A stretch of DNA of 50,440 nt, taken from Patescibacteria group bacterium (GTDB lineage Bacteria > Patescibacteriota > Minisyncoccia > Phycocordibacterales > UBA9973). A model generated the notes under the pieces. That model did not search any database. It was not told the origin of the DNA and saw only the letters and a program-made list of their open reading frames with translations. Below are positions 1,770 through 50,440 of the stretch, one piece after another. Within the stretch, counting starts at the first letter, position 1. Each line of letters begins with the position of its first letter. The DNA lies in NCBI GenBank assembly GCA_040384805.1, contig JAZKIP010000010.1, positions 29,545-79,984 of the forward strand. Reading direction: 5' to 3'. The position numbers and the translations under genes are program-made.

Positions 1770-1772
1770 AGT

Positions 1773-3424: not shown

Positions 3425-3475
3425 GTTTAAAAATCCTTATTTTTTAGCAAAGCGTAAAAATGATATAATAAAAAA

Positions 3476-5009: not shown

Positions 5010-5078
5010 ACTTATTAATTTAAGTGAAGAATTTCTTATACATTACAACAATTCATATCTATTGTCAATTCGCCTTTT

Positions 5079-5993: not shown

Positions 5994-6147
5994 ATGATTT
6001 CTATCCTCGCATACTCGGACTTTTTTTGCTATAGTACTGATACTTGTCCCGTATGAAATTCTCGATGAAGGGATAGAATAGATAATCGTTGTATAGCAAA
6101 CTAACTTAGATTCTTGCATAAAAAATACCGCAAGAATTTCATATGGG

Positions 6148-6450: not shown

Positions 6451-6451
6451 T

Positions 6452-6475
6452 ATGTCACTATCTATCGGAATAGAG
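6452..6475 (+). repeat. attL-like junction: orphaned native ychF start (ATGTCACTATCTATCGGAAT = MSLSIGI) that runs into a stop
   Basis: It encodes MSLSIGI, then IERT*. Compare MSSLSIGIVGLPNVGKST at 19585. The shared ATCGG(A/C)AT core suggests a crossover at AT 6470-6471. Confidence 0.6.
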
Positions 6476-6729
6476 CGAACATAACCCGACACGCTATTCC
6501 TTTCTCCTTTACCATAAAGTTACCTCCTCCACTACAAAGAGGGGTAGATTATGGTTTTAAGCGCTCAAAATGAGGGTTTAGAAATAGTTTATCTTTTTTA
6601 GGTAAAATAGGCCTTGGGGATAGCCCCTATAAGTTAGGGGGGCTTGTTCCTATAAGATGTGACTCTCTTACTTTTTACAACAAACATCGACTTCTATCAT
6701 TCTAGAGGAGAAAAGAGTAAAATCGAATT

Positions 6730-17581: not shown

Positions 17582-17596
17582 GAACGCTAACATCCA

Positions 17597-17770
17597 ATGT
17601 CAATCGATAACATAAAAAACAAAAAACCAAGAAAAGGAAAGGCTAAAAATACGAAGCCCTTTGTGTTTTCTTATTATGTTGTTGAATCAGCATCGGAAAC
17701 AGAAGTTCAGTCGAGAATAGATAAAGCGTTCGACATCCTTTTCTCGGAGGTTGTGAATAAGTCTAATTGA
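17597..17770 (+). CDS. possible 57-aa basic/acidic small protein
   Basis: MSIDNIKNKKPRKGKAKNTK... lies between the replicase and the excisionase-like gene. It is below the ORF-track cutoff. Confidence 0.3.
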   Translation: MSIDNIKNKKPRKGKAKNTKPFVFSYYVVESASETEVQSRIDKAFDILFSEVVNKSN

Positions 17771-17802
17771 CATCTATAGACAATTAGGAGTATAGTATAT
17801 TT

Positions 17803-17982
17803 ATGGAATTTCTAACTAGGACCGAGGTAGCAAAATATTTCAGAGTTCACGAAAGAACAGTTGATCGCTGGATTGAGAGCGGTATTTTGAAGAGTTATAA
17901 ACTTGGAAAGGGCAGGACTGCGTTATTGAGAATACCAAAGTCAGAGGTAAAGAAGTTTTTAGAGAAAAGTAAAAACAAATAA
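17803..17982 (+). CDS. excisionase-family / MerR-like HTH DNA-binding protein
   Basis: 59 aa. LTRTEVAKYFRVHERTVDRWIESGILKSYKLGKG...RIPKSEV is the classic HTH_17/excisionase pattern. It ends 2 nt before the recombinase start. Confidence 0.75.
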   Translation: MEFLTRTEVAKYFRVHERTVDRWIESGILKSYKLGKGRTALLRIPKSEVKKFLEKSKNK

Positions 17983-17984
17983 AA

Positions 17985-19646
17985 ATGATAGAAGAAATTC
18001 AAAAACAAAATAAGTTGATTGCGGTTTACGGAAGAGTATCAACTTCAAATCAAGAAAATGAAGGTACTATTGAGACCCAGCTTTCGGCTGTGAGAGAATT
18101 TGCTAAAGCACATGGTTATACCATAGTAAAAGAATACTTAGACGAGGGCTGGAGTGGTGATACTCTCGTAAGGCCATCTCTCGATCAGCTTCGTATAGAT
18201 GCAAAAAAGAAAGGTTGGGAAGCAGTCTTGATTTTTGACCCTGATAGATTAGCAAGACGTGGAGCATGGCAAGAAGTCGTAATAGAAGAATTAAAAGAAC
18301 TAGAGATTGATGTTCTCTTTGTTACTATTCCACAACCTAAAACAGATGAAGATAAGATTATGTATAAAATGAGAGGAGTATTCACCGAGTACGAGAGAAT
18401 GAAGATCAAAGAAAGATTTAGACTTGGAAAAGTTCGCAAAGCCAATGAAGGTCATATTATCTCTACAGAAGGGCCTTATGGTTATAATTTCATAACTAAG
18501 AAAGGGAAAAAAGGCGATGCAGATTTTCTAGAAAGTCATTATGAGATTAACGAATATGAATCACAAATTGTTAAAAACCTTTTTTCATGGGTAGCAGATG
18601 AAGGGCTAACCTTGCGTGCTATTGTTCGGAGACTTCAAGAATTAAATATACAGCCACGTAAGAGTAAAAGAGGTGTTTGGAATACGAGTACATTAAGCAC
18701 TCTTTTCAAAAACAAAACTTATATCGGAGAAGGTCACTATGGGGCCTCTTATGCCGTAGTACCAACAAATCCTTTGAAAAAAGAGGGATATAGAAAGATT
18801 AAAAAAACCAGTAGAAAGATGAAGCCAGAGAATGAATGGATCATTATTCCCACTCCTAAAATTATAGATGAAGATATCTTCATGAAAGTCGGACAACGTT
18901 TAAGATCAAATTTTGAACTTTCGTCTAGAAACACAAAGAACGAGTATCTGCTTAGTGGTAAAATATGGTGTGATTGTGGCAAAAGGCGTGCAGGAGAAGG
19001 CCCACAGCAGGGCAAGCATCTTTATTATCGGTGTACTGATCGAGTAAAGAGTTTTCCTCTACAACCTGAATGTAAAGAAAAAGGCTTAAATGCTAAGATC
19101 CTCGATCCACTAGTATGGCAAGGAGTTGCAAATCTTATGAGTTCTCCTGAATTACTTCTTAAGCAAGCAGAGCGTTGGCTAAATAATCAGAAAATGGGAA
19201 ACAAAACTTCAACAATAAATATTGAAGAAACAAAAAAAGAAATTGCTAAATTGAAAGATCAAGAGGATCGTTACACTAAAGCGTATGGAGCTGGCGTTAT
19301 TACCATAGACCAACTAAAAGAATACATCGCACCACTGAAAGAAAAAATATCATTGTTCAATAGTCAAATCAATAAAGCTCGATTAGAGACAGAACACATT
19401 GATGAAAGGCAATTACCAAAATTAAATGAAATAGAAGTATTTGCAGAAAAAGCATCAGAATTCTTAAAAGACTTGAAATTTAATGCTAAAAAGGCCATAA
19501 TCAACAATATTGTTGATAAAGTGGTCGGAACCAGAGAGAAATTACAAGTATATGGATATATTCCAGTAACATCATCAGATATTAATGTCTTCACTGAGTA
19601 TCGGCATCGTAGGACTTCCCAACGTCGGCAAATCGACGCTTTTTAA
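17985..19646 (+). CDS. large serine recombinase (integrase)
   Basis: 553 aa. The resolvase catalytic N-terminus is IAVYGRVSTSNQ...QL. A recombinase domain follows, then a zinc ribbon (CDCGKRR...YYRC) and a coiled coil. The last about 20 codons overlap the ychF start. Confidence 0.9.
   Translation: MIEEIQKQNKLIAVYGRVSTSNQENEGTIETQLSAVREFAKAHGYTIVKEYLDEGWSGDTLVRPSLDQLRIDAKKKGWEAVLIFDPDRLARRGAWQEVVIEELKELEIDVLFVTIPQPKTDEDKIMYKMRGVFTEYERMKIKERFRLGKVRKANEGHIISTEGPYGYNFITKKGKKGDADFLESHYEINEYESQIVKNLFSWVADEGLTLRAIVRRLQELNIQPRKSKRGVWNTSTLSTLFKNKTYIGEGHYGASYAVVPTNPLKKEGYRKIKKTSRKMKPENEWIIIPTPKIIDEDIFMKVGQRLRSNFELSSRNTKNEYLLSGKIWCDCGKRRAGEGPQQGKHLYYRCTDRVKSFPLQPECKEKGLNAKILDPLVWQGVANLMSSPELLLKQAERWLNNQKMGNKTSTINIEETKKEIAKLKDQEDRYTKAYGAGVITIDQLKEYIAPLKEKISLFNSQINKARLETEHIDERQLPKLNEIEVFAEKASEFLKDLKFNAKKAIINNIVDKVVGTREKLQVYGYIPVTSSDINVFTEYRHRRTSQRRQIDAF
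19585..19610 (+). repeat. attR-like junction: element-encoded replacement start of ychF
   Basis: ATGTCTTCACTGAGTATCGGCAT|CGTAGGACTT parallels 6452-6475. The proposed crossover dinucleotide is AT at 19606-19607. Confidence 0.6.
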
Positions 19647-24940: not shown

Positions 24941-27793
24941 ATGAAAAATTACGACCATACTAAAATTGAGCGTAAATGGCAGAAGGAATGGGAGGCGAAA
25001 AAACTATACCATGCAAAGACAAAAGCTAAGGGAAAGAAATTTTATGGCTTGATCGAGTTCCCATATCCGTCAGGATCAGGCCTTCATGTGGGCCACATCA
25101 GAAGCAATACGGCTATGGATATTATCACTCGCAAGCGCAGGATGGAGGGATACAACGTGCTCTATCCGATCGGCTGGGATGCTTTCGGACTGCCGACGGA
25201 AAACTATGCGATCAAGACAGGAAAACAGCCCGAAAAAGTAACCAAAGAAAATACCGACATGTTCCGCAAACAGCTCAAGGCATGCGGCTTCGGATTCGAC
25301 TGGTCGCGGGAAATCAATACGACCAATCCGGCCTATTATAAATGGACGCAGTGGATATTCTTGCAATTTTATAAGAAAGGTCTCGCATATAAGACGAAGA
25401 CCATGATCAACTGGTGCCCGAAGGACAAGATCGGCCTTGCCAACGAAGAAGTGGTCAACGGCCGCTGCGATCGCTGCGACGGTCCCGTTGAAAAAAGAGA
25501 AAAGGAGCAGTGGATGCTTGCGATCACGAAATACGCCGATCGTCTTGATAAAGATCTCGATGATGTGAATTACCTTGAAAAGATCAAGATCCAGCAGAGA
25601 AACTGGATCGGAAAATCCGAGGGAAGCGAAATTGATTTTACAATCAAAAATTTCCCGGAAAAAGTTACCGTTTTCACAACCCGTGCCGATACTCTCTACA
25701 GTGCCTTTGCAGTTATCCTTGCACCGGAGCACTCTTTGGTGGAGTCTCTGAAAGGACAGATAGAAAACTGGAGCGATGTGGAGAAATATATTTCCGATGT
25801 TAAGAAGAAAACTGATATCGAGCGTACCGCCGAGGACAAGGAAAAAACAGGAATCGAGCTCAAGGGAATCCGTGCGATCAATCCGATTAACAACGAAGAA
25901 ATTCCCGTATGGATCGCAGACTTCGTGCTTGTCCACTACGGTACGGGAGCGATATTCGCCGATATTCATGACGAGCGCGATCATGCCTTTGGCAAGAAAT
26001 ATGGCTTGCCCATGCGTCGCTCAATCGAGCCGGTATTCCATGCGTCTGACCATCCGATCCGGGACGGCCTTCCTGTTATAAAGCGCAATGCTATCTGCGC
26101 TGTTATTCGAAACCCGAAAGACGATACCTATTTATGCAGCGTCTGGCGCGATATGCATATGCACGGTCTCATCACCGGGGGCGTCGAAGACGGAGAGGAT
26201 ATGGTGAAAGCGGCCATGCGGGAAATATATGAGGAAACAGGATATAAGAACGTAAAGCTCGTCAATAATCCCGATATCGCGATACACAGCACATTTTTTC
26301 ACCGCAAGAAGCAGGAGAATCGATGGGCGCGATTCCAGTACATGTTTTTTGATTTGATCGATAAGGAGAAAGATGAAATCGACGAAAAAGAAGCTGCCAT
26401 CCATGACGTTGTCTGGAAGAAAAGAAGCGAGCTCGATAATTTTTTCTCTGTCGTTGAAGGGGAATTCGTTCTTAATTTGATCGATACGGGTGACTATATA
26501 CATACGGGAGAGGGAATACTCTCGAATTCAGGTCCTCATACCGGCATGACATCCGAAGAAGCCCGAAAAAAGATAACAGAAGCTATCGGAGGAAAGATCG
26601 TGACGAAATACAAGCTTCGTGACTGGGTCTTCTCGCGTCAGCGCTATTGGGGAGAGCCGATTCCGATCATTCATTGCCAGATATGCGGCTATGTTCCGGT
26701 TCCGGAAAAAGATTTGCCGATACTCTTGCCGAAAGTAAAATCATATACGCCGACCGACACCGGTGAATCTCCGCTTGCCGCAATTTCGACATGGGTTAAT
26801 ACGACATGCCCCCACTGCAAAGGCAAAGCCAAGAGGGAAACTGACACGATGCCCAATTGGGCGGGAAGCTCGTGGTACTATCTTCGCTATACTGATTCGA
26901 AGAATAAGAAAGAATTCGCAAGCCCGAAAGCCCTTTCATATTGGATGAGCAAGAAGTCAGGCGGAGTCGACTGGTACAACGGCGGCATGGAGCATACGAC
27001 GCTCCATCTGCTCTACTCGCGTTTCTGGCACAAATTCCTCTACGATTTAAAGCTTGTGCCAACGCATGAACCCTATATGAAAAGAACATCTCATGGCATG
27101 ATCTTAGCCGATGACGGTTCAAAAATATCAAAATCAAAAGAAAATGGCGTCAATCCGATCGATGTCATAAAAACCTACGGAGCTGACACCCTTCGGGTCC
27201 ACGAGATGTTCATGGGTCCGTTCGACCAGGCAGTGCCGTGGAATTCAGAGAGCCTGATCGGCTCGCGGCGATTTCTTGAGAAAGTGTGGAGAGCCGCAAC
27301 TCTCCTTGAGACTAAGAATAAAAACTCTCATAAGGAAATCGAAAAAACTCTTCATAAGACGATCAAGAAAGTCACTGAGGATATTGAGACCATGAGCTTC
27401 AACACGGCGGTCTCGTCGATGATGGTCCTTGTCAATGAAATTGAAAAACAGAAGGAGATTTCCCGGAAGGATTTCATGATGTTTTTACGGATACTCTGTC
27501 CCTTCGCTCCTTTCATTGCCGAAGAGTTGTGGCATCAGATGGGAGAGAAAAAATCAATTCATCGTGCGCCATGGCCCGCATATGATTCACAAAAGATCAT
27601 CGATGAGGAGATTACAATCGTCTTTCAAGTCAATGGCCGCGTGCGCACGGAAAGAAAGATCCCTCGCGATTTATCCGAAGAAGAGATCAAGGCTCTTGCT
27701 ATAAGCGACAGCGTCGTTATCCCGTGGATCGATGGCAAGGAAATAAAGAAAATCATCTATGTGCCCGGACGACTTGTTAACATTGTTGTCTAG
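24941..27793 (+). CDS. leuS: leucine--tRNA ligase carrying an inserted NUDIX hydrolase domain
   Basis: 950 aa. HVGH (HIGH), KISKSK (KMSKS), the CP1 editing motifs TTRADTLYSAF and GTGAIFADIHDERD, and RDWVFSRQRYWGEPIP. The Nudix box GGVEDGEDMVKAAMREIYEETGY is at nt 26177-26245, inside an extra segment of about 150 aa. Confidence 0.95.
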   Translation: MKNYDHTKIERKWQKEWEAKKLYHAKTKAKGKKFYGLIEFPYPSGSGLHVGHIRSNTAMDIITRKRRMEGYNVLYPIGWDAFGLPTENYAIKTGKQPEKVTKENTDMFRKQLKACGFGFDWSREINTTNPAYYKWTQWIFLQFYKKGLAYKTKTMINWCPKDKIGLANEEVVNGRCDRCDGPVEKREKEQWMLAITKYADRLDKDLDDVNYLEKIKIQQRNWIGKSEGSEIDFTIKNFPEKVTVFTTRADTLYSAFAVILAPEHSLVESLKGQIENWSDVEKYISDVKKKTDIERTAEDKEKTGIELKGIRAINPINNEEIPVWIADFVLVHYGTGAIFADIHDERDHAFGKKYGLPMRRSIEPVFHASDHPIRDGLPVIKRNAICAVIRNPKDDTYLCSVWRDMHMHGLITGGVEDGEDMVKAAMREIYEETGYKNVKLVNNPDIAIHSTFFHRKKQENRWARFQYMFFDLIDKEKDEIDEKEAAIHDVVWKKRSELDNFFSVVEGEFVLNLIDTGDYIHTGEGILSNSGPHTGMTSEEARKKITEAIGGKIVTKYKLRDWVFSRQRYWGEPIPIIHCQICGYVPVPEKDLPILLPKVKSYTPTDTGESPLAAISTWVNTTCPHCKGKAKRETDTMPNWAGSSWYYLRYTDSKNKKEFASPKALSYWMSKKSGGVDWYNGGMEHTTLHLLYSRFWHKFLYDLKLVPTHEPYMKRTSHGMILADDGSKISKSKENGVNPIDVIKTYGADTLRVHEMFMGPFDQAVPWNSESLIGSRRFLEKVWRAATLLETKNKNSHKEIEKTLHKTIKKVTEDIETMSFNTAVSSMMVLVNEIEKQKEISRKDFMMFLRILCPFAPFIAEELWHQMGEKKSIHRAPWPAYDSQKIIDEEITIVFQVNGRVRTERKIPRDLSEEEIKALAISDSVVIPWIDGKEIKKIIYVPGRLVNIVV

Positions 27794-36027: not shown

Positions 36028-36032
36028 TTTTT

Positions 36033-36103
36033 GCGGGATTGGTATAGTGGTAGCATGCGACCTTCCCAAGGTTGAGACACGGGTTCGATTCCCGTATCCC
36101 GCA
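36033..36103 (+). tRNA. tRNA-Gly (anticodon CCC)
   Basis: GCGGGAT-TG-GTATAGTGGTAGCAT-G-CGACC-TTCCCAA-GGTTG-AGAC-ACGGG-TTCGATT-CCCGT-ATCCCGC-A. Confidence 0.9.
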
Positions 36104-36441
36104 CCCTCAAAAAGCTTTTTGAGGGTGCGGGATAGCAGACAACTGCTTGTCTGCGTGCGGGAATCGAAAGGCTTTTCGTTATCCGCTTTGGCGGATCGAA
36201 AAGCACCTGGCTACGTGGTAGCCGATTCCCGTATCCCGCACAAAAGTGCGTTTTTACATAAGCACTCTGCAATGCTTATGTGCGCTTTTGTGAGCCGGAG
36301 CGATATGCCACGAGCACGCGGGCATCGCGAGGCGGGGTCGCGCAAATCCCGATGCGACGGCGAAGGATTATGGGTGACCAGAAAAAGCCTTCGATCGAAA
36401 AGCACATGGCTAGGTAATAGTAGATTCCCTTATCCCGCACT
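36104..36441 (+). other. GC-rich, heavily structured noncoding trailer of tRNA-Gly with two extra copies of the tRNA 3' end
   Basis: CGATTCCCGTATCCCGCAC occurs at 36086-36104 (in the tRNA) and 36223-36241. A near copy, GATTCCCTTATCCCGCAC, is at 36423-36440. A perfect 40-nt palindrome spans 36095-36134 and includes the tRNA acceptor 3' strand. Several further 8-bp hairpins follow. The overlapping ORFs look spurious. Confidence 0.6.
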
Positions 36442-36529
36442 AATTACCTGTCAAGTGTTGCACTCTTACTCTCTATGATATAATAAGAATCTATTTATCA
36501 AATATCGGGCCTTCACGGGCTTAAAAATC

Positions 36530-37949: not shown

Positions 37950-38056
37950 TTTCAAACATCGCCCTATTATTTGGAGGTACTAGTTGAAATTGATAATTAT
38001 CGCTAAATTTGCTACTATCAAAGAAGTCTTTTGTTGGTAAATATAGGTTATATTCT

Positions 38057-38129
38057 GCCGAGATAGCTCAGTTGGTAGAGCGCTCCCCTGAAGAGGGATA
38101 GGTCACCAGTTCGACTCTGGTTCTCGGCA
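38057..38129 (+). tRNA. tRNA-Phe (anticodon GAA)
   Basis: GCCGAGA-TA-GCTCAGTTGGTAGAGC-G-CTCCC-CTGAAGA-GGGAT-AGGTC-ACCAG-TTCGACT-CTGGT-TCTCGGC-A. Confidence 0.92.
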
Positions 38130-38256
38130 CAAAAAAGTTAATTAGCAACGTATTTTAGAAAATAGACGATTTTTTTAGCCAGTCCCGCCTGTAAACAGGC
38201 TCTCGGCCCTAATTCTAAAAAATACAAAATATGATCGCCGCATGTAATAAAATTAC

Positions 38257-39150
38257 ATGGATTTATTGATCTTGTGCCAGAAGTTTTGTGATTATTCCTT
38301 GTCCATAAAAGGATTCTCAAAGGTTACGGTTAGGCGCTATAGGCAAGTAATACGCTTCTATTGCAAGCAGGCAGCCATAAGCGACATCAACGAAGTAACA
38401 CAGGAGAATATACGCGCTTTGTTCTATAATGGAAGGACAGAGCGATCTTGGACGCCGAATACCTTTATTCATTACCATAAATCATTACTGGTCTTTTTCA
38501 GATGGTGTATCAAACAGGGTTATATGGAAAGTAATCCTGTACATGATATCGAAATACCCAAGCTCCATAAGAAACTGCCTCCCAAGCTAACCAGACAAGA
38601 TGCCATACGCCTTTTGGAGGTTGCTTATAACTATCCTTATAAATATAAGTTTTTAAGATATCGCAATCATGCCATATTCTCGATGTTTATCTTTACCGGC
38701 TTGCGGAAGCAGGAATTACTACATCTTAAATTTACCGATGTGGATATAGAAAATCTCTCTATCTTTGTCAGGCAAGGGAAGGGGAATAAGGATCGCATTG
38801 TGCCGATGTCATATACTCTCGCTTTGAGCCTAAAAAGGTATCTGGAGGAGAGGAAGCGGCTCCATAAGACATGTCCTGAATTTTTTACATCATTGAATCA
38901 GAATCATGGTTTTACCGAAAGCGGGCTTAGAAACCTTATTTCACAGCTTCGTGTTTCATCGGGAATATTCTTCACAGCGCATAAATTGCGACATACATTC
39001 TCTACATTGATGCTCGAAAATGGCGTTGATATCTATTCTCTAAGCAAGATGCTCGGACACTCGGATATCAAGACTACTACTATTTATCTGTATGCCAGTG
39101 CGGAACATTTGCGTGCCCAGATAGGGAAGCACCCTTTAAATGAGATTTAA
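38257..39150 (+). CDS. tyrosine recombinase / integrase (XerC/D-like)
   Basis: 297 aa. The N-terminal SAM-like domain is followed by the catalytic ...TGLRKQELLHL...HKLRHTFSTLMLENGVDIYSLSKMLGHSDIKTTTIYLY (R...HxxR...Y). Confidence 0.9.
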   Translation: MDLLILCQKFCDYSLSIKGFSKVTVRRYRQVIRFYCKQAAISDINEVTQENIRALFYNGRTERSWTPNTFIHYHKSLLVFFRWCIKQGYMESNPVHDIEIPKLHKKLPPKLTRQDAIRLLEVAYNYPYKYKFLRYRNHAIFSMFIFTGLRKQELLHLKFTDVDIENLSIFVRQGKGNKDRIVPMSYTLALSLKRYLEERKRLHKTCPEFFTSLNQNHGFTESGLRNLISQLRVSSGIFFTAHKLRHTFSTLMLENGVDIYSLSKMLGHSDIKTTTIYLYASAEHLRAQIGKHPLNEI

Positions 39151-39291: not shown

Positions 39292-41100
39292 TTAAGAGTT
39301 TTCTGCTGGTACTACATTATAGTACTTTGTGTTGTGGTGAATTGGCTTAGAATCATCTAGAACATCAAGCCCTTGTAGTCTAATGTCTTTACCCTCTAGC
39401 ATTACTATTTTGCCGTCTAGTCCTAATAATTTAAGACTTTCTCTAATTGATTTATTTCCTGCAATTTCCGATTCGACTAGATCGTCTACGGTTACCCACT
39501 TTCTAAGATTAGTCATGGTAGTAAGTATTTCTTCGTAAACCTTTTTGTTTGATTTTGCCCCATTATATTCACCGTCATAAGTAAAGAAATCATCTTTGCC
39601 ATCAATATTTATAATCACTTTAATCGGGTTCATTTTCTTATCTCCCTTTAACTTGTCTTGGCTTATAATCAAATACTGAGTATCGGTATCCTTGTCCTTT
39701 TGGGGTTCAAGACTTATGTGCCCGTGTACTGCTGCATTTATCGCACTACTTCCTCTTGTTTCTTCTGCTCCCATATTGCTCTTACCAAACCCCGATTTTT
39801 TGCGGTTATGGTGTGTAAATAGGATAGTAAATCCAGCGTTAGTTATTTTCTTAAGGTTATTCATGACCCCCTGCATGGCAGTAGAATCATTTTCTTCGGC
39901 AGAGTGAATACTGCGAAGTGAATCAAATATAATGAATTTAACTCCGCGATCTTTTCCTATGCCGATAATACTGTCTACTGTTTTTTCATCTAACTGAATT
40001 TCATTTGATACCATAAAGTGTATTGGCAAATTATCCCATTCCTTTTCTAAAATATTAAGTCTTTCTCTGATTTGTCTTGCTCGATCCTCTTCATTAATAA
40101 TGAGAACCCCTTGTTGTTTAACAGCAAGGTTCCCAAATAGTGGTTTTCCTTTGGATAAACAAATGGCAATGTAAAGTGTAAGCCAGCTTTTAAAGTTATT
40201 TGGTGCGGCACTGACCATATTTACTGTTTCGGTCTCAAAAAGCCCTTGGACTGCCCATGCGGCTTCAGGAAATTCTGCATTACTAAGTTCTTTTGCACCC
40301 ATTACTAACAGTTCTTTTTTAGTTTCAGAGGTAATTCTCTTTGACAATTCTGCTTTTACAATGGAGCGATAAATCGTATCAATTTCCGAATTTGGCAAAG
40401 GTTTTTCTGCGCCCTTATTAACTAAATGCATTAGCGGTCTTACAAATGTTTCCCAATCATCTTGTTTTAGAGTGGCTAACAGCTTTCCTGTCATTGAGGT
40501 GATGTTATTGTTTCGTGAGCCGACTAATAGGTTTAGATATGGCGATGGCTTGCTTGAACTTACTTCTTTTTGATCTTCCTTAATTTTTTCTTCAAACCAT
40601 TCAGGCAGAGGGGGAATGGGTTCACTATCATCTGGCTCTACGGCCCACCAGTAATCTTTTGCCAAGCCAATTGTTGAAGATGGCAGAAGAATATATCCAC
40701 CATCTGCTTTAATGTCTACTCCTTGTCCAAATAACTTACCATTTGTAGATTTCACATGGTAGCCGGGGTGAAGAAAGAAAAAATGCCAGCCCGCATTTCC
40801 TGTTCTTGAGTGAACAGTGTTTCCGAGAGGGAACTCATCAACAGATCGTGGATTCTCTCCCTTTGCATCAATATCCAATACTACTAAATTTGATATTTTT
40901 CCTGTAACTACGGCAGGATTTGCATCTGGCCATTTAGCCCACCATTCCTTAATTTGCTCCTCAGAGGCACTTTCTTGTTGATATTTAACCCAAGATGAAA
41001 TATATGGGGTCTTGTCCTCTTTAACAGGGATTATAGACCAACCTAATTTTTCACATTTTAATGCGGTTTCTAATTTAATATTTGTCTTTATTTCTATCAT
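39292..41100 (-). CDS. bifunctional prim-pol domain + RecA-like (AAA_25) ATPase replicase
   Basis: 602 aa. The N-terminus has GWSIIPV...NPAVVTGKISNLVVLDIDAKG...GWHFFF...VDIKADGGYILLPSS (prim-pol). The C-terminus has MVSAAPNNFKS (Walker A-like), FIIFDSLRS (Walker B) and ILFTHHNRK. Confidence 0.8.
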   Translation of the reverse strand: MIEIKTNIKLETALKCEKLGWSIIPVKEDKTPYISSWVKYQQESASEEQIKEWWAKWPDANPAVVTGKISNLVVLDIDAKGENPRSVDEFPLGNTVHSRTGNAGWHFFFLHPGYHVKSTNGKLFGQGVDIKADGGYILLPSSTIGLAKDYWWAVEPDDSEPIPPLPEWFEEKIKEDQKEVSSSKPSPYLNLLVGSRNNNITSMTGKLLATLKQDDWETFVRPLMHLVNKGAEKPLPNSEIDTIYRSIVKAELSKRITSETKKELLVMGAKELSNAEFPEAAWAVQGLFETETVNMVSAAPNNFKSWLTLYIAICLSKGKPLFGNLAVKQQGVLIINEEDRARQIRERLNILEKEWDNLPIHFMVSNEIQLDEKTVDSIIGIGKDRGVKFIIFDSLRSIHSAEENDSTAMQGVMNNLKKITNAGFTILFTHHNRKKSGFGKSNMGAEETRGSSAINAAVHGHISLEPQKDKDTDTQYLIISQDKLKGDKKMNPIKVIINIDGKDDFFTYDGEYNGAKSNKKVYEEILTTMTNLRKWVTVDDLVESEIAGNKSIRESLKLLGLDGKIVMLEGKDIRLQGLDVLDDSKPIHHNTKYYNVVPAENS

Positions 41101-41802: not shown

Positions 41803-42132
41803 ATGTATCAGAGCATTAAGGAAATACTGGAAAGTCCGGTGCATCTTTCCACCTACAAAGGGAGCAAGAACACCAAGGATATGGTCGCAGAAGAGATCAA
41901 GAAAAAGTACGGAGTAAGTGAGTTAAAGAACTATAACCCATATAATTCAATGATGACCTACGCTTCGTGGTTCAAGCTTGGATATGTCCCAAAGAAGGGA
42001 GAAAAAGCTATCAAAAGCACTACCTATGTCGAGGTAAAGGATGATAGAGGGAAGATTTTAAGAAAGGTCAAACGATCGGTAAATCTCTTTTATTATCGCC
42101 AGATGCAACAGCTTAAGCCAAAAGAACTATGA
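41803..42132 (+). CDS. hypothetical protein (faint ArdC-N/DUF1738-like W..LGY.VKKGEK motif)
   Basis: 109 aa. TYASWFKLGYVPKKGEKAI. Confidence 0.5.
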   Translation: MYQSIKEILESPVHLSTYKGSKNTKDMVAEEIKKKYGVSELKNYNPYNSMMTYASWFKLGYVPKKGEKAIKSTTYVEVKDDRGKILRKVKRSVNLFYYRQMQQLKPKEL

Positions 42133-42529: not shown

Positions 42530-42682
42530 AACCTAACCCTTTAGAAATAAAGGTATGGTAGTAAATCCTCCGCAACAAAGACGGTCATCTGACTGGCTCT
42601 CTGTTGCGGAGGTCTACACTTGAAAAGGTGTAGTGGCGGTCCGAAAGGATTCGCTTGCCAGTTCGGGTGACCTTTTTTGTTA
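42530..42682 (+). ncRNA. structured RNA leader, copy B (same motif as 13970-14110)
   Basis: P1 is CCTTTA-GAAA-TAAAGG (42538-53). P2 is CCTCCGCAACA/TGTTGCGGAGG (42567-77/42602-12). P3 is GTCC-GAAA-GGAT (42639-50). It ends in a T-rich tail. The P2 sequence differs from copy A but stays complementary. Confidence 0.55.
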
Positions 42683-42718
42683 CCTCAACTATTATCAAAT
42701 AACCTCCGCAACAGGTAT

Positions 42719-43780
42719 ATGAAAAAAATAATAATTCTGGTTTTTGTATTTTTATGGGGTTTAAGTGGAACAGTATTAGCATATATGGGTCCCGGTTCTC
42801 AATATGATCCATTACATGTTCAGATAGAGGAAACTCCATTAGATAGGCTCCGTACTGAACAGCAAAATGTTCAATCTTTAAAAAAGTCACTCCAAAGTCA
42901 GTATGGAACTACTGCATATTATGCTTGTTATGATACTACACGATGCGCAGATATAAATTCTGATACAAGTTTCCCTGGCGCTACTCAAATGTGCGAATAC
43001 CAAGTACAGTCATGCCTAGGACATGGTACATATAAATCAAAATTAACGGAGGAGTGTCGAAAAAGACATGGTGATACTAGTTCTTGGAATGACACTACTA
43101 AAAAATGTACTGCTCCACAGAAAACAAATGACCAAATCTGCAACGATTCTTTTCTTAATAGTAAATGGGATGGTGTAAGAAATGATAAAGGTGGGCTTGT
43201 GTGTGGTTGCGCAACGGGTTTTCAATGGAATACTTCAGGTACTCAATGTATTGCCATTCCTAATAAAGTTGTTCAGCAGAATGTAAATATAGGAGCAGCT
43301 CCGACTTGTAGCATTGTTTTCAACCCTCAAATCATAGAAGCGGGCCAATGGGTTGTTGGCTCAAGAAAAACAAGCGGAACAGTAAGCGATCTTGTCATGA
43401 AATATGTTACTGATGCGACTGGCAAAATTACTTTTGCCATGACATTGGATTCAAATGACACTATCATTAAAAAATTAAATAATGGACAAGTTGATATATA
43501 CAAGACAGGTAAACTTGCAACGCAGGAAACTGGAAAATTCTCTCAAACATGGACAATTAAGGGCCCAGGTGGTTCTGGTACTTGCACTGGTTCATACACT
43601 GTCATACCAAGTAAAACTTCTACAAAAAAAGTAAGTCCTGAAAAGATAACTACCACAGCTCAAGTTTCTGAAACAATTCAGGCTTCTTTTGAGGCGTCTG
43701 TTCCTGTTTCAGAGCCTGTCGATATTCCAGCTTATCAAAAGATTGGATTATTCCGTCATATATTAAATTGGTTTAAGTAA
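42719..43780 (+). CDS. secreted Cys-rich protein, hypothetical
   Basis: 353 aa from the ATG at 42719. The signal peptide is MKKIIILVFVFLWGLSGTVLA, and the mature part has many Cys. Confidence 0.65.
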   Translation: MKKIIILVFVFLWGLSGTVLAYMGPGSQYDPLHVQIEETPLDRLRTEQQNVQSLKKSLQSQYGTTAYYACYDTTRCADINSDTSFPGATQMCEYQVQSCLGHGTYKSKLTEECRKRHGDTSSWNDTTKKCTAPQKTNDQICNDSFLNSKWDGVRNDKGGLVCGCATGFQWNTSGTQCIAIPNKVVQQNVNIGAAPTCSIVFNPQIIEAGQWVVGSRKTSGTVSDLVMKYVTDATGKITFAMTLDSNDTIIKKLNNGQVDIYKTGKLATQETGKFSQTWTIKGPGGSGTCTGSYTVIPSKTSTKKVSPEKITTTAQVSETIQASFEASVPVSEPVDIPAYQKIGLFRHILNWFK

Positions 43781-44939: not shown

Positions 44940-45461
44940 ATGAAATTAACAGCTATTGAAAGAGCAACTCTCATAATGCTCCACAAAATACTCAAAAATC
45001 TAGAACCAGAAAATAAGAAAGAACACACAAATGCAATTGAAATCCTTGAAGATGGATATTATGAAATGTGGGAGAATGAATGTCTTGGACATCTAAGTCA
45101 GCCATTGGAGAAAGAAAAAATGAATTATGTTCATGATATTCTAGGTATGTATTGGCGACTGCAGGATTCATATAAAGACTTAAGTGATGGAGACAAAAAG
45201 AAAGTAGGAACTGAAGATACAGTCATCTTCGAAGGATTTGATGGAAATAATGAAACAGAATTATTGTCATATGCACGATTTCTTATGGAGAGATTTGATA
45301 AATGGAGTGGTGTAAAAGCCACACATGATCTTAATACTCATGCTCCAACTGGTAGAAGATATAGTGCTATGCTCGAAGCAATGCCAAGCTCAGAACTAAG
45401 ACACCTTTCTGCGGAACAGATCAATACAGTTCTTAAAGCACAATTTATAAACATTATTTAA
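44940..45461 (+). CDS. YfbU-family (UPF0304) protein
   Basis: 173 aa. ...ERATLIMLHKIL..LEP, ILEDGY, FEGFDGNNETELLSYARFLM and LSAEQINTVLKA line up with the E. coli YfbU pattern as I remember it ([20 protein letters not shown]...LSANEINQIINA). Confidence 0.65.
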   Translation: MKLTAIERATLIMLHKILKNLEPENKKEHTNAIEILEDGYYEMWENECLGHLSQPLEKEKMNYVHDILGMYWRLQDSYKDLSDGDKKKVGTEDTVIFEGFDGNNETELLSYARFLMERFDKWSGVKATHDLNTHAPTGRRYSAMLEAMPSSELRHLSAEQINTVLKAQFINII

Positions 45462-45466
45462 TAAAA

Positions 45467-46006
45467 ATGAAAATAAGTATATCAAAATTAGATGCTGCAA
45501 AAAGGCAATTAGAAATGGCCCTGAACCTCTTTTTTAGAAATGCAGATCCTGTTTCTATTCATACGTTGGTCGGAGCGGCACACCAAGTTTTACAGGATAT
45601 CTGTGAAGAACAAGGTACGCAAAGTATAAAACAGAAATTACTGGATATGGTTAAACCAGAAAAGAAAACAGAGTTTATAAAAAAATTAAATGCGCCACGC
45701 AATTTTTTTAAACATGCTGAGAATGATCCAAACAGTGTCATAGAATTCAATCCTGAAATGACTGACCTTATTTTGTGGGATACATGTTTAATGTATACAA
45801 CATTAACACAAGAGAATCCGGCAATAATACAGGTATTTAACGCTTGGAACTATGCTAATTCTCCAGAAATATTGATCTTGCCTGATCAAGTAAGAGAGAA
45901 GTTAGATCTAGCAATTACTGGGTTAAAGCTAAATCCACAAAATCGAATAGGTTTTTTAGAATTAGTCCCTTTAATTGAGAATAATTTATATGGACAAACT
46001 ACATGA
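45467..46006 (+). CDS. hypothetical helical protein with an RNxxxH (HEPN-like) motif
   Basis: 179 aa. APRNFFKHAEND (nt about 45698-45715) fits the HEPN Rx4-6H / Abi-type RNxxxH motif. It starts 5 nt after the YfbU-like gene. Confidence 0.5.
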   Translation: MKISISKLDAAKRQLEMALNLFFRNADPVSIHTLVGAAHQVLQDICEEQGTQSIKQKLLDMVKPEKKTEFIKKLNAPRNFFKHAENDPNSVIEFNPEMTDLILWDTCLMYTTLTQENPAIIQVFNAWNYANSPEILILPDQVREKLDLAITGLKLNPQNRIGFLELVPLIENNLYGQTT

Positions 46007-46688
46007 TAATATTCAATTTTATATTGATGAATCCTATAATGCTAACTTTTTAGGAGTAGCTATTGTTGTCATTCTTGGTGAAACTAATATCAAAATTACA
46101 CAAGGTATTCTTTCTTCGCTAAGTAACGATCCAGTATTCAAGCATCGCAATAATGGCTCCGGCAAGATCCATTCCACTGAGAATAATCTTGGTCCCAAGA
46201 TAAATGTTGTAGATAAAATTTACCAAATGCCAATATCAACTTACTTATCTTACAAAAAGCAAGATACTTCCTCGCTAACAAAGCAAGAAATGGATGAGAT
46301 CGCATATGGAGAATTGCTACCTGAACTTTTAAAAAGAATAGCTACAAAATATATAAAGAACTTCAAAGACCGATCTATAATTATTACCCTAGAATTTGAA
46401 CAATTAAGTGATAAAAAGGAAAAAGATAGGTTGTTTTTTGCTGAATGTATTAAGGATTTAATATTTAATTTTGAAATCCAAGTATTAAGTAAAAAGAACA
46501 TTTTTACTAGCCTTCCAGATTACTTCTTGACGTTTTTGCGGAATTTACTAGAAGAACCACATACCAATTGGTCTAAGAATGAGTTAGAGTTGGTTGAAAG
46601 CAAGATAGGGCTTATACTTGATGCAAGTAATCTCCAAAGGAAGTATTACAGTAGAGGAGATGAAATAAGGAACTTTATAAAAGCATAG
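45990..46688 (+). CDS. DUF3800-like protein
   Basis: 232 aa from the ATG at 45990. The N-terminal FYIDES motif and the later SLPDYFL resemble DUF3800 (YxDESG ... QxAD). It overlaps the previous gene by 17 nt. Confidence 0.5.
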   Translation: MDKLHDNIQFYIDESYNANFLGVAIVVILGETNIKITQGILSSLSNDPVFKHRNNGSGKIHSTENNLGPKINVVDKIYQMPISTYLSYKKQDTSSLTKQEMDEIAYGELLPELLKRIATKYIKNFKDRSIIITLEFEQLSDKKEKDRLFFAECIKDLIFNFEIQVLSKKNIFTSLPDYFLTFLRNLLEEPHTNWSKNELELVESKIGLILDASNLQRKYYSRGDEIRNFIKA

Positions 46689-46695
46689 TAATTAG

Positions 46696-46775
46696 TGAGG
46701 CCTCTAGCTATTAGTTTAGGGCATGAGTTCGTGTCCGGTATAGTATATTTACTGTTTTCCTAGCTAGAGGCCTCA
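46696..46775 (+). ncRNA. perfect 15-bp inverted repeat enclosing 50 nt, immediately upstream of the RT (candidate compact msr/msd-like RNA)
   Basis: TGAGGCCTCTAGCTA (46696-46710) and TAGCTAGAGGCCTCA (46761-46775). The loop contains the small hairpins GGGCA/TGTCC and AGTA/TACT. It lies 10 nt before the RT ATG. Confidence 0.45.
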
Positions 46776-46784
46776 TTGCTTATT

Positions 46785-47768
46785 ATGAAAATACCATCTG
46801 ACGAGATAAAAAATATTAAAACCCTAGAGAATTTTTGTAGGTTTTTCGCTATTTCCGAAGAACAGCTTGTTCACTTTAGAAAACATAAAAATGAGTTATT
46901 TAAAGTTGCAAAAATAGGCAAAAGAAGTGGTGGGCATAGGATTATTTATCCGATAGGGGATGACGGCTATAGGAATTTCTTAAAAGCCACTGCAGAAATA
47001 CTCGATGATCATTATATGCATAATTCAAGTTCTCCGCCTCAGAGCGTACACGGTTTTCTTAGAAATAGATCAATTATTACAAATGCTCAATGTCATGTAA
47101 AGAAAAAGATACTTTTGAATTTGGATATTAAGGATTTCTTCGAGTCAATTACAAAAGATAAAATAAACGAAATATTTATAGACCTAGGCTTTAGTAAAAA
47201 CCATAGTTCAATCCTTACAGAATTTGTAACAGTTAATGATGTCTTAGCTACAGGATTTCCTTCTAGTGCCGTATTGGCTAATATAGTCTGCAAACAAATG
47301 GATTATGGTTTTGAAATACTTTGTAAAAAATATGAAGCTACATATACACGTTATGCTGACGATATATCAATATCTAGTAATATATCTATTCCCGAGAAAG
47401 AAGTTATCGTTAAGCTTCTCTGTGGTTACGGATTTGAAATAAACGATAGGAAATATAAAATATCTCCCCGTGGTGGAAATCAGTATGTTACAGGGCTAAC
47501 TGTCTGCGACGAAAGACCGAGATTATCAAGAAAGCTAAAACGATCAATACGCCTAGAACTTTACTATATTAAAAAATATGGCTCTACAGATCACTTTCTC
47601 CATAACTTAAATAGATCTATATATAGTAAATTTACTGGTATGTTATTTACATACAGCATGGGTGGATATATATCTTTTATCCACTCTATAGAACCTGAAT
47701 TGGCTAAAAAGATTAGGAAAGTTTTAAGTTATACTAAGATTAAGGCTAATTTCTTTTTAGAAGAGTAA
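46785..47768 (+). CDS. retron-type reverse transcriptase
   Basis: 327 aa. RIIYPI, SVHGFLRNRSIITNAQCH (NAxxH), LLNLDIKDFFESI, LATGFPSSAVLANI, YTRYADDISIS (YADD at 47352-47363) and QYVTGLTV (VTG). It aligns motif by motif with Ec86 RT as I remember it. Confidence 0.85.
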   Translation: MKIPSDEIKNIKTLENFCRFFAISEEQLVHFRKHKNELFKVAKIGKRSGGHRIIYPIGDDGYRNFLKATAEILDDHYMHNSSSPPQSVHGFLRNRSIITNAQCHVKKKILLNLDIKDFFESITKDKINEIFIDLGFSKNHSSILTEFVTVNDVLATGFPSSAVLANIVCKQMDYGFEILCKKYEATYTRYADDISISSNISIPEKEVIVKLLCGYGFEINDRKYKISPRGGNQYVTGLTVCDERPRLSRKLKRSIRLELYYIKKYGSTDHFLHNLNRSIYSKFTGMLFTYSMGGYISFIHSIEPELAKKIRKVLSYTKIKANFFLEE

Positions 47769-47780
47769 ATTATATAAGGT

Positions 47781-48794
47781 ATGAAAGAAAATTTAATTAA
47801 AAATGAAATAAGCATTGAATTACATTATAATTTTGTTGATAATAGCACTCATTCAATAGATTTTCATACTAGAAATATATGTTCTTTGGTTCAAGTAGAG
47901 ATCATTTCATACATAATAAAAACACTAGATCCTAATGTAGAATTTGAAATATTATCATTACCTCCACAAGATGGTTCTTTTAAAGATTTAAACGTTGTTA
48001 AGTTTTTAAATAGGAACACAGGCCTTATTACTGCAGTTACGCTTATATTTACGGGACTACTATTTAATTCTCAAAGAGAAGCTAATAGTACCACTGCAGA
48101 TTTTAATACATTACAGATAGTAGAAAAATGTAAAGGTTTAGGCTTAGATGAGGAAAAAATTCAAAAAGTAGAAGATATATGCAGTTCCTATTACACAAAA
48201 AAACAAAAGAATGCTTTTTATCAATCAGTAATATCAAATAAAGATGTAACTAGTATAGAACCTACAGTAATTGAAAATAGTAAAGATACTTTCAACAAAG
48301 AAATTGAAAAAAAGAATTTTAGAGATTATATAGAAGAAATACCGAAGGAAAAAGAATTTCTAAAAACTAATCTGTCGGGTAATATACAACTATCTCAACC
48401 CTTTATTGATAAACAACAGCAGTATGGAAGAGGTGTAGCGTGGAAAGGTGTATATTACGGAAGCGATGTCTTTGATGATAACGATGAGTTGATTATAGAA
48501 GACGGAGAAAACATCTATTTTTACATGCAGGATGATGATTATAAAAACCAGATATTAAATCAAGAGATTTCATTTACTAGTGGAGATAACATTGGTGTAA
48601 CTTTCGATATAAGCCGATACTATGATTATATTAACGGTAAATTTGGTAAACCAAGATTGTACATAAAAAGAGTTATATCTCATAATGACAATCTAGTACA
48701 GCATAAACAAGAGCTGGCATTAAAAAAGGAGAAGAAGAAATTTGACGAAAAAAATAAAAATCAAGGCCTGTTATTCCATAATAGCCAAAACTAA
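47781..48794 (+). CDS. hypothetical protein with one central TM segment (candidate RT-associated effector)
   Basis: 337 aa. The TM segment is GLITAVTLIFTGLLF. I recognise no motif. It starts 12 nt after the RT. Confidence 0.6.
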   Translation: MKENLIKNEISIELHYNFVDNSTHSIDFHTRNICSLVQVEIISYIIKTLDPNVEFEILSLPPQDGSFKDLNVVKFLNRNTGLITAVTLIFTGLLFNSQREANSTTADFNTLQIVEKCKGLGLDEEKIQKVEDICSSYYTKKQKNAFYQSVISNKDVTSIEPTVIENSKDTFNKEIEKKNFRDYIEEIPKEKEFLKTNLSGNIQLSQPFIDKQQQYGRGVAWKGVYYGSDVFDDNDELIIEDGENIYFYMQDDDYKNQILNQEISFTSGDNIGVTFDISRYYDYINGKFGKPRLYIKRVISHNDNLVQHKQELALKKEKKKFDEKNKNQGLLFHNSQN

Positions 48795-48813
48795 GATAAT
48801 AAAAGAAAAATAT

Positions 48814-49509
48814 ATGAATCATTATACCCTTGACGATCTTAAAAAAATATTTCCCTCAAAGACTGATCAGGAGCTAGTAGATGCTCTATCAAAGGGCGTG
48901 TTGAAGTTATCTCAACCAGAAATTGAAACCGTATCCTTTATATTTTTTCTTTCACATATTGCGGAGCGTGATATGGATCATGTTTTGACTAGTCCATGGA
49001 AAGTTTTAGCTCAAATTGGTACGCCAGAGCAAATTAAAATTGCAAAAGGTATTTTAAATGCCCACATGACTAAGAATAAGTTTACAGAGCCTCCACTCGA
49101 GGAGGTTTTGAAGGAAATTCCGTCTGGACAGGCTGAAAAGATTCGTGCAGTTGTCGAGAATCGTTATCGGGATAAGTCTTCATTAAATATAGATAAGTTA
49201 GAGACTTTTGGAGACAAGATTTTGGCTTATGAAGCGATTAAATCTAAAAATAATGTATCGCGAATTCTTTGGCAACTTAAACAACTTCGGGATGATATAA
49301 GTCATGGAAGGATAAAAGAGCTAACTTATGAAAAACAATCTTTAATGAAACGCGAGGTGAAAGAAAAATTATTCTTTGACTATATGAGTGCAGTTAGTGA
49401 ACCAGAACACGAAAAATCAGGCTTAGAAGAAGCCTTAGGGGCGACATGGAGTGAAGAGGAAGATCAAACTATTAATGGGAAAGCAAAAGATTTACTAAGA
49501 AGGATTTAA
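48814..49509 (+). CDS. hypothetical protein with an Rx4H (HEPN-like) motif
   Basis: 231 aa from the ATG at 48814. LWQLKQLRDDISHGRI (nt 49288-49305). Confidence 0.55.
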   Translation: MNHYTLDDLKKIFPSKTDQELVDALSKGVLKLSQPEIETVSFIFFLSHIAERDMDHVLTSPWKVLAQIGTPEQIKIAKGILNAHMTKNKFTEPPLEEVLKEIPSGQAEKIRAVVENRYRDKSSLNIDKLETFGDKILAYEAIKSKNNVSRILWQLKQLRDDISHGRIKELTYEKQSLMKREVKEKLFFDYMSAVSEPEHEKSGLEEALGATWSEEEDQTINGKAKDLLRRI

Positions 49510-49648
49510 TTAAAGCCGTTCGAAGCCAACATTGACAAAAACTAAATATTGTTATAACGTAATTTTAATTATCGCTATTTGAAATAGATTTTGTGATGGA
49601 TAGAGGAAATCTATCTAGTTTTTTCTATTCACCACAAAATCAAATAAG

Positions 49649-50077
49649 ATGAGAAATATACATTACATTTCTGTTGATAAAAAAACTGGGAAGGTCGATT
49701 TAATGGGACATGACAGATCCCCACTTTCTTATATAGAGACTGCTCAAAGTTATGAGGGATTTTCGATTGGAGACTATAACGAACTACTCTACTTTTTAGC
49801 AGGACTGCTTTTTACGCAAAAAGAATGGGTGGTAATCATCGACAATAAAGACCGTTCTTCCATAGAAAGTAAATCTGCTTTTATGTTACGGGAATTTCTT
49901 TCTCAGCTATCAGATTCAGTAAGACGAGAATTCTTTAATGAAATTAAAGCCAATAATTTGGATGAAAGAGATGCTTCCAGCTGGTTGTATGAGCATCCAG
50001 AAATCAAATTGCCCGATATTAAGAATAAAATAATAACAGGTAAAAAGTTTTTGGAAGACTTGATTGCCAGCAAATAA
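49649..50077 (+). CDS. hypothetical protein
   Basis: 142-aa ORF followed by a terminator hairpin. Confidence 0.5.
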   Translation: MRNIHYISVDKKTGKVDLMGHDRSPLSYIETAQSYEGFSIGDYNELLYFLAGLLFTQKEWVVIIDNKDRSSIESKSAFMLREFLSQLSDSVRREFFNEIKANNLDERDASSWLYEHPEIKLPDIKNKIITGKKFLEDLIASK

Positions 50078-50133: not shown

Positions 50134-50385
50134 TATTTTGCTATCAGAATAGCTATCTGGATATCAATACACGCTCGGAGCTAGTTTTTAAATTGATAAT
50201 TATCTTTAAATTTGTTAAACTTAAAATAGTCATTTATTAGTTAAAAACATTCTTTGTGGCAACCTCTTTTTGAGGTTTTATATTGAAAGTTTTTAGGATA
50301 GAAACAGGCTCAGGATAAATAGGCGATAAAAGAAGCAGATTTCTAAAATATCATTGTAAAATACATTCTTATCGTGTTCGAGGCC

Positions 50386-50440
50386 CTCAGTTGGTAGAGC
50401 GCTCCCCTGAAGAGGGATAGGTCACCAGTTCGACTCTGGT
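50386..50440 (+). repeat. direct repeat: partial tRNA-Phe (D-arm to T-arm; continues past the window end), attR-like
   Basis: It is identical to 38067-38121. The 5' acceptor strand and the first D-stem base are missing (GGCC instead of GATAG), so it is not a complete tRNA as far as can be seen. Confidence 0.75.

Follow-up and report, generated by a model that had tools for sequence, protein, structure and literature searches.

In the retron classification of Mestre et al. (PMC7736814), type VII-A2 is made up of a clade-4 reverse transcriptase (RT) with a neighbouring non-coding RNA (ncRNA) and of a DUF3800 protein encoded separately. Among HEPN proteins, HepS is a tetramer that is triggered by a phage tail-tip protein and cuts tRNA anticodon loops, leading to abortive infection (PMC13043305), and ApeA is a single-gene, deoxydinucleotide-activated tRNA anticodon nuclease that also acts by abortive infection (bioRxiv 10.64898/2026.01.26.701840). 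Type I restriction–modification (R-M) operons harbour restriction-linked open reading frames (ORFs), which have been described as second-line suicide modules acting jointly with R-M (PMC3710099). Here we compare with these systems two genes, coding for proteins of 337 and 231 amino acids (p337 and p231), which follow a retron RT in a 50,440-nucleotide stretch of contig JAZKIP010000010.1 from a Patescibacteria group bacterium. This whole stretch is referred to below as the window.

An earlier note on this DNA had proposed p337 and p231 as a new pair of RT effectors. Our analysis leads to a different reading, which we consider likely: p337 and p231 are two separate single-gene modules, both candidates for a role in defence, which lie beside the retron and not within it, and the whole group is cargo of an integrase-encoding element.

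The gene cluster and its retron

Seven ORFs of the same strand make up the cluster. They are listed here together with two features located inside p337 and p231.

44940-45461, +, YfbU ORF, the first of seven same-strand ORFs spanning 44940-50077
45467-46006, +, 179-aa ORF (p179), following the YfbU ORF
45990-46688, +, DUF3800 protein, accessory protein typical of type VII-A2 retrons (PADLOC DUF3800_VII, 8e-8)
46776-47768, +, retron RT, likely start at ATG 46785, stop at 47768
47781-48794, +, 337-aa ORF (p337), ATG start, member of the PADLOC candidate family PDC-S42
48021-48065, +, hydrophobic segment GLITAVTLIFTGLLF of p337 (residues 81-95), candidate single membrane-spanning helix
48814-49509, +, 231-aa ORF (p231), ATG start, predicted HEPN ribonuclease (RNase)
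49288-49305, +, RDDISH, predicted Rx4H catalytic motif (R159...H164) of p231, the sole invariant columns in homologue alignments
49649-50077, +, 142-aa ORF (p142), downstream of p231

The sizes and coordinates of p337 and p231, the gaps that precede them (12 nt from the RT stop codon to p337, 19 nt from the p337 stop codon to p231) and the peptide LRDDISHGR, encoded at 49285-49311, had all been given correctly in the earlier note. A TTG at 48742 would provide p231 with an alternative start and a length of 255 aa; the ATG at 48814 was retained because the N-termini of the homologues support it. Both ORFs are real genes: 49 homologues of p337 and 86 of p231 were found. A terminator search across RT, p337 and p231 detected none before a hairpin with 23-nt arms at 49587-49641 (+), which lies in the 139-nt spacer 3′ of p231 (z = -3.35). 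This hairpin, which is not followed by a U-tract, may mark where the transcription unit ends. Beyond the spacer, p142 matched no family and had no homologue in any of the loci compared. The sequence was present in one DNA metagenome run and in zero RNA runs.

The best PADLOC model for the RT is RT_VII-A2 (5.1e-78), and the protein is also recognized by Pfam RVT_1 (2e-15) and by the NCBIfam model of the retron St85 RT (1e-50). The product of the gene directly 5′ of it, which matches DUF3800_VII as listed above, carries in its N-terminal IDES the 'DE' motif, as in PMC7736814. Between these two genes, an inverted repeat of 27 nt closes two hairpins (46684-46787, +), forming an element of about 104 nt that fills the 87-nt DUF3800-RT gap and extends slightly into both genes. 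With a predicted fold of -53 kcal/mol (z = -8.85), this structured element is the probable retron ncRNA; its length seems compact for an msr-msd unit. No element comparable to it was found in the intergenic gaps between RT, p337 and p231. The locus therefore holds the RT model, the DUF3800 partner and the adjacent structured element of type VII-A2, and, judged by these signatures, RT, DUF3800 protein and ncRNA-like element form a complete type VII-A2-like retron without p337 or p231. The earlier note had suggested that candidate effectors may flank the RT on both sides: upstream, the DUF3800 protein is the canonical partner; the downstream half of the suggestion, p337 and p231, was not supported.

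p337 and the candidate family PDC-S42

The 337-aa protein had been described as showing no recognizable motif. In fact, its residues 1-332 match the PADLOC model PDLC05016 (PDC-S42) over positions 2-317 of 320 (E=8.3e-25), which is a full-length match, and the two other PADLOC models of PDC-S42 are matched more weakly. No significant Pfam match was obtained, and a literature search found no paper naming the family. The homologues (n=49, 42-76% identity) all come from metagenome-assembled genomes (MAGs) of the candidate phyla radiation (CPR)/Patescibacteria type, the named sources being Parcubacteria, Berkelbacteria, Minisyncoccia, Saccharibacteria and Patescibacteria. This CPR subfamily of PDC-S42 has an internal identity of 60-76%, as against about 24% to homologues from cultured bacteria, and possesses a private insert, GRGVA...YG.D..D. 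The remote homologues, on a Vibrio replicon and in Parabacteroides (~24% identity), keep the architecture and the hydrophobic segment. By its profile match, p337 is a new CPR member of PDC-S42, a known but uncharacterised candidate family.

In the AlphaFold2 (AF2) model of p337 (pLDDT 81, pTM 0.61), an alpha/beta domain at the N-terminus is followed by the hydrophobic helix and then by a helical region; a conserved domain rich in beta structure and a last helix make up the C-terminal part. Neither a fold match nor a sequence or profile match to p337 was found in the PDB. In BFVD the model matched three uncharacterised phage proteins (E 9e-9 to 1.4e-6) with a TM-score of just 0.32-0.38. One of the three is annotated as DUF6575, which is among the new defence-associated domains of Vassallo et al. 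2022 (PMC9519451). The link of p337 to DUF6575 is structural alone; none could be established at the level of sequence, and Pfam DUF6575 matches none of the 47 homologues examined. When the remote homologues are included, most of the residues that stay invariant are aromatic or Gly, with D251 and K255 in addition, and no catalytic motif is conserved across the CPR and remote homologues.

The hydrophobic segment GLITAVTLIFTGLLF has a 15-residue core and coincides with an AF2 helix at 80-95. Its Kyte-Doolittle mean over 19 residues is a marginal 1.28, compared with 1.4-2.4 in 46 homologues. In 47 homologues and in the two remote ones, the sequence of the segment varies and its hydrophobicity is kept, while the rest of p337 is 60-76% conserved. 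This pattern fits, without proving it, a membrane helix. The single central transmembrane (TM) helix of the earlier note thus survives as a hydrophobic helix candidate, but it is not central, being situated in the first third of the protein.

The contexts of p337 were analysed at 17 distinct loci including the window, and hence at 16 others, in neighbourhoods of about 5-6 kb. Defence contexts, namely R-M, Thoeris, CBASS, GmrSD, retron or toxin-like genes, were found in 15 of the 17. In nine, as seen by clustering, Pfam and tblastn, the p337 homologue lies between hsdM and hsdS in the arrangement hsdM-X-hsdS-(extras)-hsdR. HsdM and HsdR are 79-96% identical among these nine type I R-M loci, which consequently represent one mobile cassette lineage. 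Two of them are given below in full, followed by the remaining contexts outside the window.

L002, 2973-12153: hsdM-ThsB(TIR)-ThsA(Macro)-PDC-S42-hsdS-BroN-hsdR, with Thoeris genes within the type I operon
L030 (= L013), 1439-11020: hsdM-AAA_15/21-130aa-PDC-S42-hsdS-AAA_13-Fic-hsdR
L001: p337 homologue by HpaII R-M
L004: p337 homologue by GmrSD and EcoRI methylase
L031: p337 homologue by CBASS (SMODS, bacHORMA)
L032: p337 homologue by Zeta-like and MazG-like genes and an N6_N4 methylase
L006: p337 homologue amid housekeeping genes only
Two further p337 loci: short contigs, uninformative

These CPR type I R-M operons serve as insertion hubs, into and out of which other defence genes move. No type I R-M was found in the window, so that the p337 copy present here cannot depend on one, and no partner of the PDC-S42 gene is conserved across the different contexts. 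The gaps between p337-family genes and their neighbours elsewhere are 4-10 nt and, once, 39 nt. The 12-nt gap between RT and p337 thus reflects the usual packing of the family, because equally tight gaps occur in whichever operon hosts p337. We conclude from this distribution that the gene of p337 is autonomous, moves horizontally and goes together with defence islands.

Two of the loci with a type I cassette, L012 and L013 (CAZEEW010000012.1 and CAZPKN010000001.1), are from MAGs labelled 'uncultured Gammaproteobacteria', yet they carry the same hsdM-PDC-S42-hsdS-hsdR cassette, and their HsdM is 79-96% identical to copies from Patescibacteria MAGs. This points either to mis-binning or mislabelling, or to a recent transfer.

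Could p337, instead of being an immune effector inside the cell, be a surface or membrane protein of a mobile element or prophage, with its large C-terminal domain turned outward, acting for example in superinfection exclusion or as a 'structural' protein? We regard this as unlikely, even if several features allow speculation in this direction. The NCBIfam family LAPAL_fam ('putative phage structural protein') weakly matches residues 239-301 (E=4e-5, below cutoff), and the only significant fold matches are the phage-encoded proteins mentioned above. The hydrophobic helix is flanked by more positive charge on its N-terminal side (K68, K74, R78) than on its C-terminal side, and C117 and C134, in neighbouring helices that follow the segment, are nearly invariant; the charge bias and the two cysteines are a weak hint at an outward-facing C-terminal domain. 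The lack of a conserved catalytic motif would also suit such a protein. However, neither IMG/VR nor a set of 50,697 phage genomes gave a tblastn match to p337, and the dominant home of the family is the type I R-M operon, where it stands beside other, cytoplasmic inserts of the abortive infection (Abi) type. This alternative concerns the mechanism only, because an exclusion protein would still serve defence.

Relation of the two genes to the RT

Linkage was assessed from the side of the presumed effectors only, that is, at the loci of p337 and p231 homologues. At the 16 other p337 loci, no homologue of the RT, DUF3800, YfbU or p231 genes was present within the neighbourhoods analysed. When RT, DUF3800, YfbU, p179, p231 and p142 were searched by tblastn against the first 26 loci, only the own homologues of p337 and p231 were matched, and the Pfam gene lists of L030-L032 contain no reverse transcriptase family. 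The four close p231 homologues with usable context likewise have no RT in their neighbourhood, nor a p337 homologue, nor any conserved neighbouring ORF. An RT is thus found near 0/16 other p337 loci and 0/4 close p231 loci, which leaves the proposal of a new RT effector pair unsupported: the downstream genes are not linked to the RT in the other genomes sampled. A search of IMG/VR and GenBank phages yielded no relatives of the RT, and tblastn of plasmids with the RT retrieved rhizobial RTs at 34% identity alone, which are uninformative on neighbours.

A composite system, in which the retron would have recruited a TM and a HEPN protein so that DUF3800, ncRNA, RT, TM and HEPN genes are read as one operon, has the layout in its favour. 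All genes are on the same strand, separated by the gaps of 12 and 19 nt, with no terminator up to the hairpin at 49587-49641, and there are precedents: type IX retrons have a HEPN effector, and type IV retrons a 2-TM one (PMC7736814). We nonetheless hold it to be very improbable. Apart from the lack of co-occurrence in the 16 and 4 other loci, the effector proper to this RT clade, DUF3800, is already present, and p337 is as tightly spaced wherever it is inserted. Neither protein matches a PADLOC retron-effector model, p337 matching PDC-S42 alone and p231 nothing. In type IX, the effectors precede the retron, and one of them is a winged helix-turn-helix (wHTH) protein (PMC7736814); here p231 comes after the RT, a wHTH protein was not found, and no RT_IX model is among the best 25 of the 63 PADLOC RT models matched by the RT.

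p231, a divergent HEPN protein

Only four close homologues of p231 were found, and a profile search of 1.84 billion representatives extended its clade to 86 members (50% clustering). An Rx4H motif is present in 23% of shuffles of the p231 sequence; as this is not beyond chance, the motif is meaningful only through its conservation. Among 49 homologues (20-59% identity), no column other than R159 and H164 is invariant, and the same is true of a distant short subfamily of 27 members; the family consensus is LRN[DN]xxH[GN]R. The HEPN-like reading of LRDDISHGR put forward in the earlier note was thereby borne out, the Rx4H residues being conserved in 49 + 27 homologues. Residues F42, F44, E51, I136, R166, L170, Y172 and L177 are conserved in at least 90% of the 49.

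p231 itself has no match among the Pfam, PADLOC, NCBIfam or PHROG models. Its relatives do: 13 of the 49 homologues match HEPN_Apea and six HEPN_RiboL-PSP, while one member each matches HEPN_Cthe2314 and DUF4145 and two match Abi_2. One member, P0117, passes the gathering score of HEPN_Apea (25.1 vs 24.4 bits); it belongs to the 27-member short subfamily, which aligns to the p231 subfamily with an hhalign probability of 99.6% (E=1.6e-24).

The AF2 model of p231 is all-alpha (pLDDT 91.2, pTM 0.81). R159 falls in the last turn of the predicted helix 147-163, which H164 follows immediately; the next helix is 180-195. In HEPN domains the motif is found at the end of helix 3 (PMC3710099), and the Rx4H of p231 sits, in the model, at the end of its predicted helix 3, as in HEPN topology. 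The near-invariant E51 lies within a long predicted N-terminal helix, 34-68, which we assign to HEPN helix 2, and E51 fits the conserved acidic residue there. In homologues, the stretch 69-131 varies or is missing, and it fits the poorly conserved insert between HEPN helices 2 and 3. In the PDB, the sole sequence match of the p231 family is HepS, aligned across the motif with a non-significant E = 0.35; nothing was found for p231 alone or for the short HEPN subfamily. Membership of p231 in the HEPN superfamily is well supported by the motif, the predicted topology and transitive homology, with no match to a solved structure. On these grounds p231 is a divergent stand-alone HEPN protein, predicted to be an RNase, and represents a new divergent clade of a known superfamily, which current models miss in the case of p231.

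The four close homologues stand in various surroundings: one adjoins phage tail and injection genes, and another is solitary in a Patescibacteria chromosome. No relatives of p231 were detected in IMG/VR or GenBank phages. Many HEPN proteins are toxins of toxin–antitoxin (TA) pairs (PMC3710099), and p231 could be imagined as such a toxin, with p142 downstream or p337 upstream as its antitoxin; p231 and p142 do occur together on one assembled contig from the same sample. This is, in our estimation, highly improbable: no MNT or other known antitoxin family was found beside p231, no partner ORF is conserved over five loci, neither p142 homologues nor other conserved small ORFs occur near the four close homologues, and the 139-nt spacer with its hairpin separates p231 from p142.

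Finally, a retron-independent two-gene system made of p337 as membrane sensor or anchor and p231 as HEPN RNase, suggested by their adjacency on the same strand with a 19-nt gap, is likewise very improbable, as p231 homologues occur in 0/16 other p337 loci and p337 homologues in 0/4 close p231 loci, and the 231-aa gene found 5′ of the p337 homologue in L004, considered as a possible relative, is unrelated to p231.

The integrative element

The retron, p337 and p231 are located towards one end of a region bounded by direct copies of a tRNA-Phe sequence.

38067-38121, +, tRNA-Phe repeat, left copy (attL side), within the tRNA-Phe called at 38057-38130
38257-39150, +, tyrosine integrase (Pfam Phage_integrase, 1.8e-31)
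39292-41100, -, Prim-Pol/AAA_25 gene on the element
50386-50440, +, tRNA-Phe repeat, right copy, 100% identical over 55 nt, running to the window end, a partial tRNA match

The region 5′ of tRNA-Phe is also repeated, with 76% identity (37984-38041 vs 50187-50244). GC content is 34.4% in the 12.3 kb between the repeats, compared with 41.2% in the rest of the window, and 28-36% in the defence genes. Because of the repeats, the integrase and the low GC content, the retron, p337 and p231 are cargo of one tRNA-Phe integrative element, a layout typical of defence islands. Reads cover the island evenly, and no joined form that skips it was reported; the window is chromosomal, as it contains Ddl, Alr, MiaA and LeuRS. 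The cluster is thus a mixed defence island of an ordinary kind, placed at the distal end of this 12.3-kb CPR element, which carries at least three defence modules. The earlier note had considered two adjacent systems as a fallback, and in this respect it was essentially right, the modules here numbering at least three.

Other features of the window

In front of the retron, a gap of 5 nt separates the gene for the YfbU-domain protein (Pfam 8.6e-35) from that for p179, which contains RNFFKH (Rx4H) and weakly matches HEPN_Apea (E=0.016). The two genes may constitute a further two-gene module. p179 was considered as a second HEPN protein; only the motif aligns (hhalign probability 0.6%) and no PDB match was obtained, so it stays a lead.

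The element also contains a full-length match to the Rfam LOOT RNA at 42530-42652 (+), which scores 70.4 bits where the gathering score is 46.4 (E=4e-12). A 367-aa gene with a hydrophobic N-terminus and no Pfam match lies 3′ of this RNA (42677-43780). Another ORF of the element, of 109 aa (41803-42132), shows a weak match to the N-terminal domain of the anti-restriction protein ArdC (E=0.0013, below the Pfam cutoff).

Elsewhere in the window, the leucyl-tRNA synthetase ORF (24941-27793) has a NUDIX match (PF00293, 1.1e-11) at residues 382-498, after the editing domain, which gives the impression of an uncommon fusion or insertion. Next to an AAA_25 protein (15512-17581) lies a large serine recombinase (17985-19646), with a 1611-aa ORF without Pfam match upstream (6730-11565); the region 15512-19646 probably represents a second mobile element. 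tRNA-Gly (36032-36106) has its 3′ part repeated twice more, at intervals of 137 and 199 nt (36086-36443), and these partial repeats may be remnants of earlier integrations.

Discussion

The analysis of this locus prevents adjacency alone from being mistaken for a new type of retron. If p337 and p231 are separate modules, each would act in its own way. By analogy with HepS and ApeA, p231 would be a latent and probably oligomeric RNase, switched on by a phage-derived cue, which then cuts tRNA or other RNA and brings about abortive infection. p337 would be an autonomous, membrane-anchored and apparently non-enzymatic protein, forming a second line beside DNA-targeting immunity and acting, most likely, either by abortive infection at the membrane or by exclusion at the envelope. 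RT, p337 and p231 are probably read through as one transcript in the compact cassette, but the tight spacing of RT and p337 does not indicate mechanistic coupling. A bolder and only tentative view, which we think rather doubtful, is that PDC-S42 represents a new kind of membrane-anchored, non-enzymatic immune protein, a portable second line for DNA-targeting systems, attached to type I R-M operons in most CPR loci and, here, to a retron. Such a protein might, for example, detect that the system next to it fails or is inhibited and then collapse the membrane, RT, p337 and the HEPN gene being co-transcribed as a layered unit.

Several observations weigh against the separation of the three modules or against the roles assigned to them. 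PDC-S42 is a computational candidate only, for which the literature search found no paper, and the nine hsd loci, being one lineage, are not nine independent observations. Non-defence contexts are seen at L006, in a CPR genome, and for the remote homologues of Vibrio and Parabacteroides. For p231, the contexts amount to just four close homologues, a Foldseek search of the model against the PDB returned no HEPN structure and no match, and the protein itself is missed by the Pfam and PADLOC models. No terminator was found between RT, p337 and p231, and the two genes may share a transcript with the RT. The functions proposed, defence for p337 and metal-independent RNA cleavage for p231, are both predictions.

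To our knowledge, the immune repertoires of CPR are poorly studied and little is known of the mechanisms of their defence systems. The habit of PDC-S42 of occupying the hsdM-hsdS gap in CPR, together with its striking conservation across CPR lineages, makes it a reasonable target for validation, and the small HEPN clade of 86 representatives can now be recognized and annotated. If they prove true, the second-line reading of PDC-S42 and the new HEPN clade will add to the defence mechanisms of CPR.

Compared with described systems, the locus differs from retrons in which the RT works with a HEPN effector (type IX, HEPN and wHTH) or with a membrane effector (type IV, 2-TM), since its RT is nearest to VII-A2. 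The p337 family resembles PrrC, RloC and other restriction-linked ORFs in being embedded between hsd genes; it differs in that p337 lacks HEPN and ABC-ATPase domains and contains a hydrophobic helix. The AAA_13 family, encoded beside some p337-family genes, is that of the ATPase domain of PrrC/RloC. HepS, from the Gifsy-1 prophage (PDB 9oij), is like p231 in size (212 vs 231 aa), in being a partnerless HEPN protein and in being borne by a mobile element or prophage, and its alignment with the p231 family spans F..KI...L..N..RN..H. p231 is distinguished from HepS by an insert of about 60 residues between helices 2 and 3, and the sequence match between them, as given above, is non-significant. 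HEPN_Apea is the Pfam family nearest to the p231 family, but p231 is not an ApeA system: it has no PADLOC match at E<=1, in a library assumed to include an ApeA model, and is without the beta-rich N-terminal domain of about 300 aa of ApeA (PMC3710099). By analogy, the closest functional counterparts of p231 are nevertheless HepS and ApeA, the single-protein HEPN anticodon nucleases.

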